NCBI GenBank assembly: GCA_016840425.1
Contig: JAEOSI010000090.1
Location: 1-8,058, forward strand
Direction: 5' to 3'
Length of the DNA: 8,058 nucleotides
Origin: Candidatus Wukongarchaeum yapensis
GTDB lineage: Archaea; Asgardarchaeota; Wukongarchaeia; Wukongarchaeales; Wukongarchaeaceae
Below are positions 1 through 8,058 of the stretch, one piece after another. Position 1 is the stretch's first letter, and each line of letters starts with the position of its first letter. The notes beneath the pieces were generated by a model, which was given only the letters and a program-made list of their open reading frames with translations, made no database searches and had not been told where the DNA came from. The translations under genes were made by a program, and so were the position numbers.

Positions 1-20
1 CTCAGGACACGTATAAGCCT

Positions 21-107
21 CTATGAAAAAAACATTTTCAAAATTTCTACCATCAGAAGAAAGAAGAGACCGAAGACGCCGAACAAAATGAATCCCCACC
101 CCATCAT
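21..107 (-). CDS. Possible 28-aa hydrophobic small protein (MMGWGFILFGVFGLFFLLMVEILKMFFS)
   Basis: Hand translation from ATG 107 to TAG 23-21; GGGGG immediately upstream; one TM-like stretch. Below the ORF-track cutoff, and could be an artefact of the A-rich + strand. Confidence 0.3.
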   Translation of the reverse strand: MMGWGFILFGVFGLFFLLMVEILKMFFS

Positions 108-385
108 CCCCCTTTAAAATATTTCCAACTCCAATAAAAACAACCTTAGGCACTCTCATCTCCTTTTCCTCGAAAAATTGAAAAGCTTTTATCAAACCTT
201 CAACATCACTAACATTCGGAAGAAAAACTTCACTCTCATTACCAGAAACCATAAACATACCCCAAAAAAAACAAAAAAACGTTAAAAAAAGAAAATAATA
301 ACTAAAGATATTATAAAAAAACAAAAAACTACCTTTTACTAACTCGACCTTCTTGATCGCCTTTTTACCCGCATAATTCTTTCCT

Positions 386-404
386 AAAAAAAAGGAAGAA
401 AAAG
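386..404 (-). terminator. Oligo-U tract downstream of hydrogenase gene (putative archaeal terminator)
   Basis: Minus strand CTTTTTCTTCCTTTTTTTT about 22-40 nt after the TAA stop at 427. Confidence 0.4.
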
Positions 405-426
405 TTTTACGAAAGCTCCGGGATTT

Positions 427-1680
427 TTAGAGGTTGAATAAGTTCCGCTTCGTTAGCCTTCCTCTATTAGCAAGATGCGTCAAAACCTCACCAGTAACAA
501 TCTTCTTCCTGTCAGTATTAAGATCTACGAACATAATCCTATCAGTACACGAATAGCATGGGTCCATCGCCCGAATTCCAACAGGTATGTCTGCAATGTT
601 ATTCCCGATCAATCTATAGAGAGCCGTGGGAATGTTGTTAAAGGTTGGTGCTCTTATTCTCCATCTGTACGGTTTATCTGTTCCATCGCTGATACCGTAG
701 TGGATCACAGTTCCTCTTGGAGCTTCTGACCGCGCTGCTGCCTCGTTCGGCGGGGGTCTTTTCGGAAACTTTATTTTTACATCTCCGCTTGGCAAATTAT
801 CCAGGATATATTGACATATCTCGATACTGTTTAAGACTTCGTCAAGCCTTACACGAGTAGTATCTAGAACATCTCCATTTGGCCATACGCAAACCTTTAC
901 TGGAAGTTCCTTGTAGGAAACATAAGGGGCATCTTTTCGTATATCGAACTCTACGCCACAACCTCTTAAAGTTGGACCGTTACACCCTAATTTGAGGGCG
1001 TCTTCCTTAGAAACTTTAGCTACGTTCTCTAAACGCGCCCTGAAAGTGCGACTCGTTTCAACAACTTCGTAATGATATTCTACCTGCTTTCTAAGCTGAT
1101 CTAAGCCTTTCTTGAGTTTTGGAATATAGTCACTCGGCAAATCTCTACTAACACCACCAGGCTGCATCCACGCATAATTAACCCTATTGCCTGATATAAG
1201 CTCTAGAAGGTCCATGACGATCTCTCTGTCTCTCCAGGTTATCATGAAGAAGGTATCGAAGCCAGCATCATGTCCCAATATACTATACCACAACATATGA
1301 CTGTGCATCCTTTCAAGTTCAGCTACTAAGACTCTTAGATATTGAGCTCTGTCAGGTACTTCGTCTTCTATCTCGGCTAGACGGTCGCAGACTTGTACGT
1401 ATGTTATCTGGTGGGAAGCACTGCATATACCACACACGCGCTCCACGATGTATAGGTTTTGTAGGTAGTTTCTGTTTTCCATGCCCTTTTCTATTCCTCT
1501 GTGATTGTAACCGATAACGGCGTCCGTACAGGCGATGTATTCTCCTTCTAGGGCAAACCTGTATGATAGTGGTTCGTGGGTGTGAGGGTGTTGTGGTCCT
1601 ACTATGATCGTGTATTGTTCTTCTTTGGCTGCTTCTTTGAATCGTTTGCTTTCTCCGTAGCGCTTTAATTCATCACTCAT
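427..1680 (-). CDS. Group 4 (energy-converting, Mbh/Ech/Hyc-like) [NiFe]-hydrogenase large subunit, 417 aa
   Basis: N-terminal GPQHP motif (complex I D-subunit fold). L1 motif ERVCGICSASH and L2 motif DPCYSCTDR with all four Ni-Fe Cys intact. L2 ends in Arg and is followed by a 36-aa extension, typical of group 4. SD GGTGA precedes ATG 1680. Confidence 0.93.
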   Translation of the reverse strand: MSDELKRYGESKRFKEAAKEEQYTIIVGPQHPHTHEPLSYRFALEGEYIACTDAVIGYNHRGIEKGMENRNYLQNLYIVERVCGICSASHQITYVQVCDRLAEIEDEVPDRAQYLRVLVAELERMHSHMLWYSILGHDAGFDTFFMITWRDREIVMDLLELISGNRVNYAWMQPGGVSRDLPSDYIPKLKKGLDQLRKQVEYHYEVVETSRTFRARLENVAKVSKEDALKLGCNGPTLRGCGVEFDIRKDAPYVSYKELPVKVCVWPNGDVLDTTRVRLDEVLNSIEICQYILDNLPSGDVKIKFPKRPPPNEAAARSEAPRGTVIHYGISDGTDKPYRWRIRAPTFNNIPTALYRLIGNNIADIPVGIRAMDPCYSCTDRIMFVDLNTDRKKIVTGEVLTHLANRGRLTKRNLFNL

Positions 1681-1767
1681 TTAATTCACCTTTGATTTTT
1701 TTATTTTCCCGACTTTGTTGGGAAAATAGTGTGGTTTCCATTTTTAGATATGTAGATTGAAGTCTTG

Positions 1768-1779
1768 TTTAAATTTCTT
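1768..1779 (-). promoter_or_regulatory. Possible BRE-TATA for hydrogenase gene
   Basis: Minus strand AAGAAA-TTTAAA about 90 nt upstream of the ATG. The region is AT-rich, so chance is possible. Confidence 0.3.
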
Positions 1780-2124
1780 GTGTTTTATTTTCGTAAGAAT
1801 ATGGCGTTTTAATGTCGATTGTCGCACTTTATTTCTAAAGAAATGAAAGATTTTAAAAAAAAATGTGGACATGCACGTCAACCCACTGTTCTCTCCCCTC
1901 CTTCAGAAAAGGTAAAACACCCGAAAAATGGACAAAACAAGCAAAAACCCTCAAGGGAAGAAAAAACCCTAGAAAATCGAAAAATAAGCAGAAAAAATCA
2001 ACCCCAGAAAAAGAGAACAAAAATACCGGGGAGAAGTAAGTTTTTACAATAGATTTAACACCAAAAGGAGGTGAAAACAATTTAAAGCGAAATCAAAGCG
2101 TGCAATACATGTGTTTTTCTACTT

Positions 2125-2625
2125 TTAAATTTTCGATCCTCTTTTCCCGTGTACTGGGCAATTCTCTTCATTTTTTGGAGTGCACTCGACGTATTCTCCA
2201 GTTTCATAAAAATATTTGAAATGATCCAGCCATCTCGGCTCTTCTTTTGGCTGATGAACAAATTTAACGAACTTCGCCAGCTTATCTATTGTCTCAGGTT
2301 TCGCAATATGTTCTATCTTACACGCATCCTCATCGGCTGTATTCTCTTTTACCCCAAGAATCAAAAGAAATTTCCTTAAGACAGTATATTTCTCCTTTGT
2401 CTCTTCAGCGATCTTTTTCCCTTTTGCTGTTAAAGTCACACCGCCGTATTTTTCATAATTAATGTAACCTGCTTCGCTTAGTTTCTGAAACATCTCTGTG
2501 ACACTAGAAGCCCCGACTCCCAGGATCTTAGAGACGTCTTTTACTTGAGCGTAACCCTTCCCTTTTATTATTGCCGCTAGTGTTTTCAAATAATCTTCAG
2601 CCCTTTCTGTCGTCATATTATTCAT
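2125..2625 (-). CDS. DtxR/MntR-family metal-dependent transcriptional regulator (paralog 1, Cys-type), 166 aa; start may be ATG 2616
   Basis: AEDYL, wHTH VKDVSKILGVGASSVTEMFQKL, GYINYEKYGGVTLT, dimerisation/metal motif EDACKIEH. No SH3/FeoA domain; C-terminal ECx7CPVH. Confidence 0.95.
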   Translation of the reverse strand: MNNMTTERAEDYLKTLAAIIKGKGYAQVKDVSKILGVGASSVTEMFQKLSEAGYINYEKYGGVTLTAKGKKIAEETKEKYTVLRKFLLILGVKENTADEDACKIEHIAKPETIDKLAKFVKFVHQPKEEPRWLDHFKYFYETGEYVECTPKNEENCPVHGKRGSKI

Positions 2626-2635
2626 CCCAACTATT

Positions 2636-2649
2636 TTTGGGGAACCGAA
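2636..2649. promoter_or_regulatory. Putative DtxR-family operator, TTCG-N6-CGAA class (1 mismatch)
   Basis: TTTGGGGAACCGAA lies between the predicted TSS and the paralog-1 start; same pattern as the boxes at 6781-6794 and 6800-6813. Confidence 0.55.
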
Positions 2650-2679
2650 TCATGTTTGGAGATAATAATATAGACATCG

Positions 2680-2698
2680 TATATAAATTGTCCTTTTA
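2680..2698 (-). promoter_or_regulatory. BRE-TATA promoter of DtxR paralog 1
   Basis: Minus strand AAAAGGACAA-TTTATATA (TATA at 2687-2680); predicted TSS near 2655. Confidence 0.6.
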
Positions 2699-2747
2699 TC
2701 TATGCGGGCGGGAAGGCTTCGTCCGAAAGGGTTGGGATGAGAGCCTG

Positions 2748-2950
2748 CGACCCTTAAATATCCCAGGTTTTATACTTTAATGAAAAAGGCTTTTTGGGCT
2801 ACATGCTCGAGAGTAGGGCTGTCCTGTGTCTGTGGCACGTACACTAATGGAAATGAACCTGCCCAAAACTCAGCCCAATGGACGGTTAACTTTTAGCGAT
2901 CCAGCATGCGAGGGGAGGAGCTCCCTGCAATAGCTGGCATTAGTTCGCTT
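2748..2950 (+). repeat. Copy 1 of ~200-nt dispersed repeat (homolog at 5983-6177)
   Basis: Core 2874-2950 aligns without gaps to 6101-6177 with 65/77 identities (manual count). Homology continues 5' with a few small indels to CTTAAAYATCCCAG. Confidence 0.92.
2917..2948 (+). mobile_element. Degenerate IS200/IS605-like right end (copy 1)
   Basis: GGAGCTCCCTGCAATAGCTGGCATTAGTTCGC is homologous to the copy-2 end. Upstream frames give NIPGF, TCSRVG and TCPK..MD, resembling the TnpB GIPV / CxxC / CPxCG..DRD series. Resemblance is from recall, not searched. Confidence 0.4.
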
Positions 2951-2963
2951 TTAGAAGCAATAA

Positions 2964-3181
2964 TCATGCATCTTCCGATAACTTGGCAATAAATTTACAA
3001 GGAACTTCAATAGAAACGGATATGTGTTTAACAGCTTTTCTAAACATCTCAGTGACTGAACTGACCTCCATCCTGTCAAGATTGCTATGTCCGTTGTCCT
3101 TACAAATCCCTCCTTTTTGTTAAGAAAAAAATGTTAAGAGAATAGATCTTTAACAAGGTAATTCTCTATTGATCTGGCCAT
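2964..3181 (-). pseudogene. Decayed DtxR/MntR-family regulator (third copy)
   Basis: ATG 3181 lies 3 nt after the FeoC-like stop. Collinear fragments in shifting frames: MARSIENYL / IYSLNKKEGFVRTTDIA / SSVTEMFRK / YPFLLKFLVNLL / EDA*. These match AEDYL, YARITDIA, SSVTEMFQK, YTVLRKFLLIL and EDAC of the intact paralogs. Confidence 0.78.
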
Positions 3182-3184
3182 ACA

Positions 3185-3472
3185 CTACGAACTCCTACGA
3201 ACTCTTCTTCCCTTATCCGTAAGGCGATACACTGTGATTCTTAAATTTCCTGCATTACCTTCTGAGCAAGGTGAGCAGAATTTTGTCATACGGCAAGACG
3301 CACAAGCGCTCTCGCTATTGGGCTTGTCTTCAGAAAGGGTCTCTATGTATCCCATGCGTTTCATCATCTCTAGCCTGTTTTTCAACTCTTCTCGACTTAT
3401 TTTCAGCTTCTGGGCTATCTCAGCGAGGGTTAGATTTTCGAGCGACATAAGTTTCAAAAATTCCTTTATCAT
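3185..3472 (-). CDS. FeoC-like winged-helix protein with Cys cluster, 95 aa
   Basis: HTH LTLAEIAQKLKISREELKNRLEMMKRMGYI, wing with CASCRMTKFCSPC, YRLTDKG. SD GAGGTG; last intact gene of the feo operon. Confidence 0.75.
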   Translation of the reverse strand: MIKEFLKLMSLENLTLAEIAQKLKISREELKNRLEMMKRMGYIETLSEDKPNSESACASCRMTKFCSPCSEGNAGNLRITVYRLTDKGRRVRRSS

Positions 3473-3487
3473 CTCTTACACCTCTTT

Positions 3488-3949
3488 TTATACGCCCGCT
3501 TTTGATAGTCTCCTGAAAGAAAACTTGCTTCTCCAGGCGAGAAAGCCGATTAGGGGCAATATTCCCAGATATATGCCAGGTTTCATGTCATCAGCTGGTA
3601 CCCATTCCTCGAAATCCTCGCTTTTTAACATGTATGCCTCTAGGGCACTGGCGCTCATTACTAAGAGATAAACGACGACCCACAGTAATGCTAGAAATAT
3701 GCCGACATAGACAAATGACACACCTTCATTCGTTCCTTCGTTTAGTTCTTTGACGCCGTACAAGAATATGGCTCCTAGCAATACGAGGATCAGAGAGCCT
3801 ATAATATCTTTGGGGATATATAGAGCGTCTGTCCATCCTGAACTATAGCCTAATCCTACGGCCAGCTGGATAAAACCGAATATTATGTATAAGGGTCCAG
3901 CTATCAATCCAAACGCTGTTTCATATTTGTATTCTTTATTTGTTATCAT
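3488..3949 (-). CDS. Uncharacterised integral membrane protein (about 4 TM), 153 aa
   Basis: Four hydrophobic segments and a basic C-terminus; SD GAGGCG; 20 nt after the feoB stop and 15 nt before the FeoC-like start. Confidence 0.85.
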   Translation of the reverse strand: MITNKEYKYETAFGLIAGPLYIIFGFIQLAVGLGYSSGWTDALYIPKDIIGSLILVLLGAIFLYGVKELNEGTNEGVSFVYVGIFLALLWVVVYLLVMSASALEAYMLKSEDFEEWVPADDMKPGIYLGILPLIGFLAWRSKFSFRRLSKAGV

Positions 3950-3969
3950 GTTATCGCCTCATCGGTATC

Positions 3970-5976
3970 CTAATCGTAGCCTAATCCACTGCCTACTTGG
4001 AAAATTAAGAATGCCGCTGTCCATGCTAAGATTATACCGTATGCTATTGCGAATAACATCCATTTCCAGGAACCAGTTTCCTTTTTTATTATTCCGACTG
4101 TTGCAATACAAGGCATGTATAGGAGAGTAAAGACCATCAGACCAAGGGAGTTTAAAGCAAAGATCTTGGGATCAGCTTCTACACTGTCTGAAATATTAGC
4201 TTCTTCTGCGTCTTCGCCAAGGCCATACAATACTCCAAGAGCACCTATAACGATCTCTTTCGCTACGAAGCCAAATAGTAAGGCTACTGCTATTCTCCAG
4301 TCGAAACCTAGGGGCGCTACAAGAGGCTCTAGAACCTTGCCTAGTTTCCCTGCATAGCTATCTTCGCTGCCGTATTCTACACCCCAGGGGAAAGTTGCCA
4401 AAGTCCATATCATTATTGCACCTAATAGTATGACCGTGCCCGCCTTTTTCAGATACATCGAGCCCCTCTGCCACATATGTATTGTAGCTGCCTTGGCTGT
4501 GGGAACCCTGTATGGTGGGAGTTCCATGATAAAGGGAGCCGGATCTCCCTTGAGCAATGTGCTCCTCAGGAGCTTTGCAGTAAGGATAGCAGCTACGATT
4601 CCGAGAACATAAATAGAAAATATCACGGTTCCTGCTTGTCTTCCGAAGAATGCACCTGCAAACAAAACATAGACAGGTAACCTTGCACCACAAGACATGA
4701 AAGGATTCACTAGTATAGTGGTCAATCTATCATTTTTATCTTCTATAGTTCTAGTGGCCATAATTGCTGGTACATTGCAGCCAAAGCCCATCAGCATGGG
4801 GACGAAAGATCTGCCGTGAAGCCCAATCTTAGTCATCAAGCGATCCATGATGAAGGCAGCTCTTGCTAGGTATCCACTATCTTCTAGGATAGCGAGCAAC
4901 AAGAACAAGATGAAGATGGGGGGAATGAATACTAGGACAAAGCCAACACCTCCGACTATGCCGTCACCTAATAAAGATCCGAACCAGTCAGGCTTAACGT
5001 TATCAGCTAAAGCTCCAGCTAGCCATGCAAAAGCGCTATCAAGGATATCCATGAAAGGAACTGAGAACGTGAATGTAAGTTCAAATGCGGCCCACATTAA
5101 GGCAAAAAAGATAGGGATGCCAAAATACTTGTGGGTAAACACCCTATCGATCATATCAGAAGCCGTCATCTTTTCGTCATGTCTGGAAGCTACTTGGGGA
5201 ACGATCACATCAATGGCTTCATACCTCTTGTCGGCCATGACTGCTTCATATTCTTCTTTATTTATTGTAGAAAGTATGTTTTTCACTTGGTCTAATACTG
5301 GGCTTCCCTCGATTTTCTTTAGGGCCTCATCGTCGCCCTCGAGCAATTTTACACTTAGCCATCTCGAAGGATATTTCTTTGATAGGGTGATATCTCCTTC
5401 AAGAATATTCTCCATTTGGTTTATCTTTTCCTCTATGTCGTCTCCGTAACCGATCATGTGCTCATGATGAGGACCCTTCTTTGCCTCCTTGATAACCGTG
5501 TCTAAAAGCTGATCTATGCCGATCCCCTTGGTAGCTACGGTCTTTACCACTGGTATTTCCAGAAATTTTTCCATTTTTTTCGTGTCAATTTTGTCTCCCC
5601 TATTTTCAGCCAAGTCTGACATGTTAAGGGCTATGACTATTCTTGCACCGAGTTCCATCAACTGTGTGGTAAGGTACAGGTTCCTTTCAAGGTTCGTAGC
5701 ATCCACAATATGAACTACCACATCTGGCTTTTCCTCGACAATATAATCTCTTGCAATTACCTCATCAATAGAATAGGCAGTAAGACTATATGTCCCAGGG
5801 AGGTCTACAAATTGAATCTCATACCCATTGTACTTTTTACTACCTGTCTTTTTTTCTACGGTAACACCAGGCCAATTGCCTACATGTTGTTTTGCACCAG
5901 TCAGAGCATTAAAAATAGTGGTCTTCCCTACATTAGGGTTTCCTGCTAAAGCCACTCTAATCGAATTATTTGTCAT
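3970..5976 (-). CDS. feoB: Ferrous iron transport protein B, 668 aa
   Basis: G1 GNPNVGKT, switch I VGNWPGVT, G3 DLPG, G4 NMSD. Gate/core motifs GFGCNVPA, PFMSCGARLP, FIMELPPY and LYMPCIAT. Confidence 0.98.
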   Translation of the reverse strand: MTNNSIRVALAGNPNVGKTTIFNALTGAKQHVGNWPGVTVEKKTGSKKYNGYEIQFVDLPGTYSLTAYSIDEVIARDYIVEEKPDVVVHIVDATNLERNLYLTTQLMELGARIVIALNMSDLAENRGDKIDTKKMEKFLEIPVVKTVATKGIGIDQLLDTVIKEAKKGPHHEHMIGYGDDIEEKINQMENILEGDITLSKKYPSRWLSVKLLEGDDEALKKIEGSPVLDQVKNILSTINKEEYEAVMADKRYEAIDVIVPQVASRHDEKMTASDMIDRVFTHKYFGIPIFFALMWAAFELTFTFSVPFMDILDSAFAWLAGALADNVKPDWFGSLLGDGIVGGVGFVLVFIPPIFILFLLLAILEDSGYLARAAFIMDRLMTKIGLHGRSFVPMLMGFGCNVPAIMATRTIEDKNDRLTTILVNPFMSCGARLPVYVLFAGAFFGRQAGTVIFSIYVLGIVAAILTAKLLRSTLLKGDPAPFIMELPPYRVPTAKAATIHMWQRGSMYLKKAGTVILLGAIMIWTLATFPWGVEYGSEDSYAGKLGKVLEPLVAPLGFDWRIAVALLFGFVAKEIVIGALGVLYGLGEDAEEANISDSVEADPKIFALNSLGLMVFTLLYMPCIATVGIIKKETGSWKWMLFAIAYGIILAWTAAFLIFQVGSGLGYD

Positions 5977-5982
5977 ACTTTA

Positions 5983-6177
5983 CGCCTCTTAAACATCCCA
6001 GTTTTCTATACTCCGATGGAAAAGGCCTTGGACTACGTACTCAAGATCAAAGCTGCTTGTGCTTATGGTACATGTAAATAGAAGTGAAGCAGCCCAATCC
6101 CCCAATGGACCGGGAAATTTTAGCGATTCAGCATGCGAGGGGAGAAGCCCCTTGCGATAGCTGGAAGTAGTTCACTT
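5983..6177 (+). repeat. Copy 2 of ~200-nt dispersed repeat; fills almost the whole feoA-feoB spacer
   Basis: Alignment to 2748-2950 as above. Confidence 0.92.
6144..6175 (+). mobile_element. IS200/IS605-like right end (copy 2)
   Basis: GAAGCCCCTTGCGATAGCTGGAAGTAGTTCAC resembles archaeal IS605/tnpB right ends (GAAGCCCC...TAG...GTAGTTCAC). It translates as EAPCDSWK*FT, preceded by MDREILAIQH, similar to the TnpB RuvC-III DRDxNAAxNI motif. Resemblance is from recall, not searched. Confidence 0.48.
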
Positions 6178-6187
6178 ATCACTACCT

Positions 6188-6421
6188 CTACCAAAATGTC
6201 ACCATTATCTTCATGGCGATGTCCTTGCTCAATATATATCTGCAGCCATTCACACCTACTATCAAAGAACCCTTGACAGACCTGATAATCTTGACCGACA
6301 CGTTTTCAGTGAACCCCATCTCAATCAAACGTCTTAAAAGACCTCTGTCTGCATTAATTCTAGAAACTTTACCCTCCTTTCCCTCGGGCATCATAAGAAG
6401 TGGTAAAACTTTGTTGCTCAC
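6188..6421 (-). CDS. feoA: Ferrous iron transport protein A (second copy), 77 aa, GTG start
   Basis: GLLRRLIEMGF, GSLIVGVNGCRYILSKDIAMKIMV; 3 nt after the first feoA stop. Confidence 0.92.
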   Translation of the reverse strand: MSNKVLPLLMMPEGKEGKVSRINADRGLLRRLIEMGFTENVSVKIIRSVKGSLIVGVNGCRYILSKDIAMKIMVTFW

Positions 6422-6424
6422 ATC

Positions 6425-6664
6425 TTACACCTCCAATGGTTGAACCACTACGAGCCCAGCCTCTCTTTGTCTCATCGAAAGATTGTAGCCTTTGACCTTA
6501 AACTCAACAGGGTCTTTAAGTGGTGCTCTTTTAATAATCTCGATCTCAACGCCTGTTACTATGCCCATATCGAGAATCCTTTTTCTAGTTGCACCTTTGC
6601 CCTTGATGCGGATCACTTTTGCTTTGCTGCCAGGCTCAAGAACATTGAGAGTTGTTTCAGACAT
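6425..6664 (-). CDS. feoA: Ferrous iron transport protein A (first copy); ATG 6664 preferred over TTG 6673
   Basis: TLNVLEPG, RKRILDMGIVTG, RAPLKDPVEFKVKGYNLSMRQREA. The SD-like AGGTTG fits ATG 6664. Confidence 0.95.
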   Translation of the reverse strand: MSETTLNVLEPGSKAKVIRIKGKGATRKRILDMGIVTGVEIEIIKRAPLKDPVEFKVKGYNLSMRQREAGLVVVQPLEV

Positions 6665-6685
6665 TTTCGACAACCTAAATCATTT

Positions 6686-6744
6686 CAGTGATAATAGATT
6701 AGTTAGGACTCAAAAAACAGTGATAGATTAGTTAGAACCTAACT
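6686..6744. repeat. Imperfect tandem direct repeat in the feo leader, carrying TTAG-type boxes
   Basis: CAGTGAT(AAT)AGATTAGTTAG(G/A)AC at 6686-6709 and 6718-6738. Confidence 0.8.
6730..6744. promoter_or_regulatory. Putative DtxR-family operator, TTAG class: AGTTAG-AAC-CTAACT
   Basis: Perfect 6-bp arms; TTAG/CTAA half-sites resemble DtxR/SirR boxes; lies just downstream of the predicted feo TSS. Confidence 0.65.
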
Positions 6745-6769
6745 TTTTAACCAGCTTTCTCGCTCATTC

Positions 6770-6784
6770 TATATTAAACTTTCG
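6770..6784 (-). promoter_or_regulatory. BRE-TATA promoter of the feo operon
   Basis: Minus strand CGAAAG (6784-6779) directly followed by TTTAATATA (6778-6770); predicted TSS near 6748. Confidence 0.65.
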
Positions 6785-6813
6785 ATTACCCGAATTTATT
6801 TCGGTATAGCGAA
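6781..6813. promoter_or_regulatory. Two tandem TTCG-N6-CGAA palindromes (19-bp period)
   Basis: TTCGATTACCCGAA (6781-6794) and TTCGGTATAGCGAA (6800-6813); the first overlaps the feo BRE. Confidence 0.7.
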
Positions 6814-7055
6814 TTTCTATCTTTGTCAAATCATCTGATTTTTTGCTTTCAAGGATCGTAGGACTTCACAAAACCCCTTCTTTGATAGAGGTCAATTCAC
6901 AATCCTTGAAACCTAGTCCTAAAGCTCAACTTTAAAACCCTACCTCCCTTTCCGTCCATTTTATCCCCAAAAAAGCGTTTTTAAAAATCTCTAATAAGAT
7001 TTATTTAAGTAATAATTCATTTATCTTAACTTAAAGACTAAAGACTGCCTAATAG

Positions 7056-7577
7056 GTGTTTGAATTGAACCAATTCCTTTCAAGAAGCGCTGAAGATTAT
7101 TTAAGAGCGGTTTATGAGTTGGTTGAAAAGAAAAAATACGCCAGAATAACAGATATTGCAAAACAGTTAAAAGTTAAACCTCCAAGCGTCACAGAGATGA
7201 TCAAAAAATTGAGAGAAGAGGGACTTGTAGATTTCGAAAAGTATAGTGCTGTTACCCTCACGCTGGAAGGAGAAAAATTAGCGAAAAAAATAATGAAACG
7301 AAACAAACTACTCCTAGAATTCTTAGCTATGATTGGTGTAGATGATAAAACCGCAAAAATAGACGCGCATAAAATCGAACACGACTTATCCCTTAAAACT
7401 ATAGAACGACTGCTAAGGCTTGTTAATTTTATCCAAGAAGCATCCCACGACCCAAAATGGTTAAAACTTATTGATGACTGCTGGGAAAAATTGGAAGAAT
7501 TGGAATGTGATAGACGAAAAGAATGCATCTCACAAATTCTTTCCTGTGTAGCCCTAATCCTTCAAGAAAAAGGTTAA
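7056..7577 (+). CDS. DtxR/MntR-family metal-dependent transcriptional regulator (paralog 2, His-type); real start may be TTG 7065
   Basis: RSAEDYLRAVY, ARITDIAKQLKVKPPSVTEMIKKL, GLVDFEKYSAVTLT, DAHKIEH. AGGTG (7054-7058) sits 6 nt before TTG 7065. Confidence 0.95.
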   Translation: MFELNQFLSRSAEDYLRAVYELVEKKKYARITDIAKQLKVKPPSVTEMIKKLREEGLVDFEKYSAVTLTLEGEKLAKKIMKRNKLLLEFLAMIGVDDKTAKIDAHKIEHDLSLKTIERLLRLVNFIQEASHDPKWLKLIDDCWEKLEELECDRRKECISQILSCVALILQEKG

Positions 7578-7602
7578 GTTGTTAAACCTATTGTAAAAAC
7601 TA

Positions 7603-7638
7603 TTTCTTTTTATGTTTTTAATGTTTTTACTTTTTTTA
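7603..7638 (+). terminator. Oligo-U tracts downstream of DtxR paralog 2
   Basis: Several T5-T7 runs begin about 25 nt after the stop. Confidence 0.4.
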
Positions 7639-8058
7639 AAAACAGTCGGTAGCGGATATGAGTCCGAAAGGACTTATTGAGTGCTTTTATCCTCTTTTTT
7701 TAAGGGTTGATTTTCCCTGCTTATTTTTAGGTTTTCTAAGTTTTCCTCTCTATTTGGAGGGGTTTGCGCGTTTTGTCGGGTGTTTTATTGCTTCTGAGGA
7801 AGGGGAAATTCACAACTCTGAAAATTAGGGACTTGAAAAAACTTTACAAGGTAGTAGAAGGTAGAGATGAGACGTTCGTAATTTTTCTGTAGATTTTTTG
7901 GTTTTTCTTTTCTGTTTAAGGTTTTTATGGGTGGTTGTTTTTGTGATTTGTTTTTCGTTATTTTTTAGTTTTTTAAGTGCTATTTTCGAATTAGGAAACA
8001 AAAGGGTTTTTAATCTAGTTAAGGTTTTTAGTTTTTAGTTTTTTCTTTTTTGAACCGT

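Follow-up and report, generated by a model that had tools for sequence, protein, structure and literature searches.

The two repeats that lie within the iron-uptake (feo) operon of Candidatus Wukongarchaeum yapensis are, very probably, old, protein-free, non-autonomous IS200/IS605 elements (PATE/MITE type) that hold an omegaRNA scaffold region, were inserted independently of one another and are now passengers. They occur in a window of 8,058 nucleotides (contig JAEOSI010000090.1, positions 1-8,058, forward strand; assembly GCA_016840425.1, 2.16 Mb in 277 contigs) and are termed here copy A and copy B. The first-pass annotation had taken them for non-autonomous elements or retained guide-RNA scaffolds derived from a tnpB 3' end plus right end, and this is supported by further copies with the same TTCAC boundary, by an intact tnpB with the same right end, and by homology to that parent tnpB.

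The elements would have arisen by internal deletion from an archaeal IS that carries only tnpB, an intact parent being present on contig C265. A full element of about 250 nt would comprise a TTATC-adjacent left end of about 80 nt with A/T-rich, promoter-like boxes, fused to the last 55 or so degenerate tnpB codons and then to the right end (a hairpin plus GTAGTTCAC); tnpB tail and right end together would correspond to the omegaRNA-scaffold-coding part of such IS. The single Y1 TnpA of the genome would mobilise these elements in trans, and a parent-type TnpB could use their omegaRNA, also in trans, to re-cut emptied sites. Copies A and B would be independent, old insertions opposite in strand to the feo operon. 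Mobility is deduced here from the distribution of copies and from comparison with a 74%-identical relative.

Extent, parts and setting of the two repeats

A repeat search of the window recovered the two same-orientation copies reported earlier, with the 65/77 identity (84%) then given for the core (2874-2950 versus 6101-6177, direct orientation, 77 nt), and BLAST and MAFFT extended the match to 2748-2950 versus 5983-6177 at 74% identity. Homology ends directly after TAGTTCGC in copy A and TAGTTCAC in copy B. A stop near (G/T)TAGTTC(A/G)C had been noticed before, and it holds across the family: in an alignment of six genomic copies with their flanks, the end after this terminal octamer is sharp and the flanks diverge at once. 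The extent first given for copy A, 2748-2950, was too short at the left. Five of the six copies extend about 50 nt further left than a start at 2748 would imply, and the DNA just to the left of a conserved TTATC is unrelated; copy A reaches some 47 nt further than had been thought, to 2701, and thus spans 2701-2948 (248 nt). Copy B has no left segment, and its clear homology begins at CTTAAAC (5988), 11 nt from the feoB start codon. The coordinates of all features are collected in Table 1.

Table 1. Features of the two mini-element copies and of the iron-uptake genes in the window
Feature	Position	Strand	Remarks
TTATC, TAM-like target motif	2696-2700	+	Directly before the left end in five mini-element copies and the C265 parent
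Copy A left-end segment	2701-2782	+	Aligns with the left end of the C265 parent IS and with other copies
Copy A degenerate left-end hairpin region, then ATGAG	about 2719-2741	+	
Copy A TATA-like boxes	CTTAAATATC 2753-2762; TTTTATAC 2768-2775	+	
Copy A tnpB 3'-end remnant, putative omegaRNA-scaffold equivalent	2783-2943	+	Post-RuvC-III codons with stops and frameshifts; nucleotide alignment with C228, C265, C172 and C216 tnpB 3' ends
Copy A conserved hairpin 1	2789-2814	+	Where the residual tnpB tail begins
Copy A right-end subterminal hairpin	2901-2937	+	Consensus stem in 11 aligned sequences; single-strand fold
Copy A right-end terminus TAGTTCGC	2941-2948	+	TAGTTCAC in every other copy
Copy A candidate 16-nt guide flank	2949-2964	+	Predicted from the IS200/IS605 omegaRNA layout
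Copy B, left end missing	5983-6175	+	Keeps A/T boxes, tnpB-tail remnant, both hairpins and terminus TAGTTCAC (6168-6175)
Copy B hairpin 1	about 6025-6047	+	
Copy B right-end hairpin	6129-6163	+	
Copy B candidate guide flank	6176-6191	+	Antisense to the feoA2 stop region; placed by geometry only
Iron-uptake operon, whole	2125-6673	-	Pfam matches for every gene except the membrane protein
feoA1	6425-6673	-	Pfam match
feoA2	6188-6421	-	Pfam match
feoB	3970-5976	-	Pfam match
Membrane protein	3488-3949	-	No Pfam match
feoC-like, winged-helix gene	3185-3472	-	Pfam match
dtxR-like repressor gene (DtxR-type)	2125-2625	-	Pfam match
Second DtxR paralogue	7056-7577	+	Outside the feo operon

On its + strand the element contains no ORF longer than 38 aa. 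The A/T boxes CTTAAATATC and TTTTATAC are conserved ahead of the scaffold region in all copies and may act as a promoter. At the terminus copy A reads TTCGC, as against TTCAC in every other copy. Two observations concern the flanks. TTATC, the target motif of the family, recurs at 6176-6180, immediately beyond copy B on the right-end side, either by chance or perhaps as a remnant of another insertion that has since been lost. Also, the 20 nt past the right end of copy A (2949-2968) match C166:4976-4995 at 18 of 20 positions, in the opposite orientation relative to the element, an agreement that chance would very rarely produce for two members of one family.

Both copies are read on the + strand, the feo operon on the - strand. 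Copy A sits between the feoC-like gene and the dtxR promoter, its TTATC lying 8 nt upstream of a dtxR TATA box (TTATATACGA) that is kept both in the window and in L087, the closest syntenic locus. Copy B occupies the feoA2-feoB junction, where the gap is normally near zero. Here the feoA2 stop (6188) and the feoB start (5976) are 211 nt apart, and copy B accounts for 193 nt of this distance. The 236 nt between the feoC-like stop and copy A (2949-3184) have no counterpart in L087, in which the gap is 60 nt. Two overlapping ORFs of 35-42 aa lie in this segment, as does a T7 run on the operon strand. Searches with it, by BLASTN and TBLASTX of the genome and by BLASTN of the FeoB-relative loci, gave only a self-match. 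A second, T-rich dispersed repeat family, starting with TTAAACCTATTGTAAAA, is present at 1894-2060 (inverted) and 7580-7810, directly downstream of each of the two dtxR paralogues (a 38% identical pair), so that inverted repeats flank the iron gene cluster. This family has many copies elsewhere (C17, C168, C217, C69, C266, C197, C263, C224), some of which include a GAAA-loop hairpin module, and may be a terminator-linked repeat or another mini-transposon.

Other copies and the parent element

The first-pass annotation had proposed a BLAST check of the genome for copy number and for an intact tnpB. That check was fruitful: there are six full or near-full copies and two fragments on seven contigs, along with 31 tnpB loci and one Y1 tnpA. 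Matches on five contigs other than that of the window have E values of 1e-28 to 1e-54, which puts the repeat well outside what chance could give; the copies on C98, C110, C20 and C166 are 75-84% identical, and the fragments are on C17 and C7. The copies are dispersed, with unrelated flanks that diverge at both ends, and the neighbours of those outside the feo operon (genes for a xylose-isomerase-like TIM barrel, a radical SAM protein, FrhB and a thioredoxin) include none related to metal uptake. In at least five of the six copies the gene adjoining the right end converges on the element. For instance, the radical SAM gene at the C110 copy uses as its stop the TGA within the terminal GTGAA of the mini-element (C110:21097-21100, opposite strand), and the xylose-isomerase-like gene at the C98 copy ends 45 nt within the element (C98:1345-1392, opposite strand).

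Are copies A and B a pair that arose locally? Their common orientation and their spacing of 3.2 kb would fit a segmental duplication inside the operon, and a local duplication had been named earlier as an alternative. However, copies A and B are only 74% identical to each other, whereas each is closer to the C98 copy (84% for A, 80% for B), so that the two are independent insertions; moreover, only the element is repeated and not its flanks. On these sequence identities the duplication reading is refuted by the C98 comparison, and we give it almost no probability. Nor is the clustering in a metal operon significant, since with about eight copies in 2.16 Mb the chance of some pair falling within 3.3 kb is, by our own arithmetic, near 0.09. 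Integration of IS200/IS605 elements is strand-specific, and the shared orientation of the two copies may reflect this.

A profile search of the genome gave 31 matches to the TNB (TnpB zinc-ribbon) domain and 21 to OrfB_IS605. The one intact IS200-type Y1 tnpA is on C70 and has upstream of it a hairpin-plus-ATGA motif similar to that of the elements. The tnpB family that concerns us consists of the genes on C265, C172 and C228 plus a broken copy on C216, all of which can be aligned, as nucleotide sequences, with the right-hand two thirds of each mini-element: element positions from about 85 to 250 correspond to the tnpB 3' end and the right end. The left 80 nt or so align with the left end of the intact parent IS on C265, including the TTATC that directly precedes it. 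The right-end hairpin and GTAGTTCAC are common to the mini-elements, to the C228, C265, C172 and C216 elements and to relatives from MAGs. Many tnpB genes of the genome terminate in TAGTTCAC or TAGTTGAC, and GTAGTTCAC occurs 45 times in the genome versus 16 expected. In IS200/IS605 omegaRNAs the scaffold is made of the tnpB 3' end plus the right end, and the guide is the flank past the right end. As this layout entails, the mini-elements are homologous to the parent IS at the tnpB 3' end and at the right end, and the position of their guides is predicted from the same layout.

In tblastn, only residues 343-399 of the parent TnpB match the element (NRLLGYMLKSRA ... LA.QSAR.E..CDSW), with stops and gaps, and these residues lie past the RuvC-III motif NRDLNGAINIG. 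This separates the peptide motifs that had been picked out by eye. The ...CDSW* tail is indeed homologous, but LNIPVFY, TCSRVG, TCPK and MDREILAIQH, which had been read as the GIPV, zinc-finger and DRD motifs, are chance look-alikes, because the element aligns only with residues after NRDLNGAINIG and its 5' third is left-end DNA. The earlier caveat that the DRD-like motif stood unusually close to the end was justified, the element having no DRD region.

The C265 protein (L025:425-1621) passes the NCBIfam guided_TnpB model (155 bits, cut-off 100). Relatives of the parent TnpB occur in Hodarchaeota, Promethearchaeota and Bathyarchaeia MAGs, with the same right-end hairpin and GTAGTTCAC terminus; the left-side motif is TTATC in two Bathyarchaeia copies and TTATT in a Promethearchaeota copy. 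The parent TnpB has the Asp residues of RuvC-I and RuvC-III and an intact C4 zinc finger; the Glu that is usual at RuvC-II in TnpBs is replaced by Gly (vfGdl aligned to avEdl). This Gly (VFGDLK) is kept in relatives (L167, L168, L171) of 51-72% identity across the Hodarchaeota, Promethearchaeota and Bathyarchaeia MAGs, in elements with both transposon ends. Gly at this place is typical for mobile RuvC-II-rearranged clades and does not by itself show that the nuclease is dead (Altae-Tran et al. 2023, PMC10691335). The parent TnpB resembles these clades in the residues just named, and probably belongs among them, which fits it better than a decayed or TldR-like protein.

Probable insertion, fixation and decay at the feo locus

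Eighty related loci were obtained by a FeoB-based search of metagenome contigs. The element is absent from all 80, and in most of them the feoA-feoB gap is -7 to +14 nt. In L087, whose FeoB is 74% identical and whose six-gene order is the same, the feoA2-feoB gap is 0 nt (211 nt here) and the feoC-dtxR gap is 60 nt (559 nt here), and because the same operon exists with such short gaps the copies are insertions and not a duplication. L087 has neither insertion; with a FeoB that is 74% identical, it falls short of an empty site in the strict sense. No clean or polymorphic empty-site joint was seen in the contigs of four metagenome runs. Joints of 2832, 2841 and 2868 to 6098 were rejected as empty sites, being chimeric alignments of other family copies, as was a joint of 5970 to 6223 (in X6), which has unknown letters between its two sides. 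Contigs that differ by 1-3% and span one or the other copy come from three other metagenome studies (mangrove, sediment and marsh), and both copies are therefore fixed in the population. In the sister genome G001 no orthologue of the feo operon was found (best FeoB match 33%).

We considered whether the left-end terminus CATG had created a new feoB start. This was rejected, for the relatives share the N-terminal length (M plus four residues before I-R/K-V-A-L-A-G); the FeoB N-termini being equally long, the feoB ATG is ancestral and the left end of copy B was lost by deletion. Judged from their ends, both copies are probably immobile: in copy A the terminus at the cleavage site is mutated (TTCGC) and the left-end hairpin is degenerate, and in copy B the left end and the TAM are gone.

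G001 holds an orthologue of the C110 copy, with flanks 89-90% identical. Identity between the two elements is 84.7%; in the intergenic DNA nearby it is 83%, and at third codon positions 79-86%, as expected of neutral drift; this neutral-rate estimate pertains to the one orthologous pair at C110 and not to the feo copies. The candidate guides, searched with up to 2-4 mismatches (2 or fewer for copy B), have no TAM-flanked match elsewhere in the genome, and the own-locus match is preceded by the right end and not by TTATC. With no guide target, with unrelated neighbours elsewhere and with a neutrally drifting orthologue, the insertion preference or co-option suggested by the first-pass annotation is unsupported.

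These results bear on a quite different reading, in which the copies are domesticated stand-alone guide-RNA genes whose omegaRNA, together with the RuvC-II-Gly parent-type TnpB, regulates the iron operon as a TldR-like roadblock or as an antisense RNA at feoA2-feoB. It is consistent with such a role that both copies, though immobilised, retain the scaffold stems and the A/T boxes and are fixed in strains from several studies, that the RuvC-II Glu to Gly change is conserved in the parent TnpB family, and that a + strand transcript from copy B, if there is one, would be complementary to the feoA2 stop and to the region of feoB where ribosomes bind. Yet the window has no tnpB or tldR, the parent genes belong to mobile IS with both ends, and their Gly is that of the mobile RuvC-II-rearranged clades (PMC10691335). 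The guide matches and the drifting orthologue described above also argue against it, as do the unrelated genes beside the other copies and the mutated scaffold-guide junction of copy A. We consider this reading very unlikely. More unlikely still is a version confined to copy B, as a retained stand-alone omegaRNA or antisense RNA gene that tunes feoB, alone or with the RuvC-II-Gly TnpB; were it true, archaea would have in copy B a trans-encoded counterpart to RNA-guided regulation of the TldR type. The present status of the decayed mini-elements is thus most likely that of neutral or mildly polar passenger DNA and not of a host-adopted regulator. Possible side effects are antisense transcription into feoA2, an altered feoB spacing or leader, and the splitting of dtxR from the operon.

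RNA structure and relation to known systems

Structure was analysed in an alignment of 11 sequences, seven from mini-elements and four from parents. Two stems, hairpin 1 and the right-end hairpin, are common to both groups. A G-C pair of hairpin 1 in the mini-elements is an A-U pair in the parents, which is a double change; three of the 23 consensus pairs show such changes, and the covariation term for the 11-sequence alignment is close to zero (-0.05), a weak signal. Several stem pairs are of the G-U type on the + strand, so that their complements on the - strand would not pair. Single-sequence folds show no difference from shuffles on either strand (z 0.36 and -0.64), and an Rfam scan of the whole window with E up to 1 matched no family. 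The DNA folds of the left-end hairpin differ between copies.

The - strand also folds into hairpins, and on the sense strand each copy stands directly upstream of an operon gene (feoB or dtxR), which could point to a cis-regulatory RNA of the feo mRNA, for example a metal-sensing leader before these two genes. Against this, the conserved stems rely on G-U pairs present only on the + strand, and neither the fold energies, which are like those of shuffles on both strands, nor the Rfam scan favour it. The same element, moreover, is homologous to tnpB, and its neighbours on other contigs are unrelated genes; the 80 relatives lack it in the same operon. This reading is already largely refuted, and its probability is very slight.

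The preferred reading, that of PATE/MITE-type mini-elements, has close precedents. Haloarchaeal PATEs (palindrome-associated transposable elements) are gene-less IS200/IS605 derivatives. PATE-like elements of Geobacillus stearothermophilus often encode omegaRNAs that need TnpB in trans (Meers et al. 2023, 10.1101/2023.03.14.532601). Like PATEs, the elements described here have no protein gene (neither transposase nor nuclease) and occur as several scattered copies, each in unrelated surroundings and with no target-site duplication. Their ends, among them the right-end hairpin and terminus, are shared with a tnpB-carrying IS of the same genome. A left end with TAM is present in copy A and four other copies but not in copy B. 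They also keep the omegaRNA-coding right end and would need both TnpA and TnpB in trans. Unlike PATEs, they reside in an Asgard archaeon and have as parent a tnpB-only IS of the RuvC-II-Gly clade, the TAM is TTATC and the right-end terminus is GTAGTTCAC; both feo copies, moreover, are decayed (no left end, or a mutated terminus).

The elements resemble ISDra2-type IS200/IS605 tnpB with omegaRNA (reRNA) in the apparent derivation of the scaffold from the tnpB 3' end plus right end, in the predicted flank guide and in the putative TAM at the left-end side. They differ in that the parent protein is only distantly similar (PDB TnpB 8exa/8h1j, E about 3e-4) and no Rfam or other RNA model matched. 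TldRs are nuclease-dead TnpB repressors with guide RNAs (10.1101/2023.11.30.569447). The feo copies are like TldR systems in that an omegaRNA-type scaffold is kept at a fixed chromosomal place beside host genes. Unlike those systems, they have no adjacent tldR or tnpB-like gene on the window contig and no TAM-flanked match of the guides to a promoter or elsewhere in the genome, and they belong to a multi-copy family with transposon ends.

The kind of element and its logic are already published, and the locus alone raises no open question. That said, the reading accounts for two unusual gaps of 200 nt in an iron-uptake operon that is compact elsewhere. With its TAM (TTATC), right end (GTAGTTCAC) and parent IS known, the family is well delimited and is an addition to the protein-free, omegaRNA-bearing mini-transposons, here in an Asgard archaeon that is rich in TnpB elements. 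The parent IS, the TnpA and the mini-elements could together be a natural test set for the use of guide RNAs in trans.
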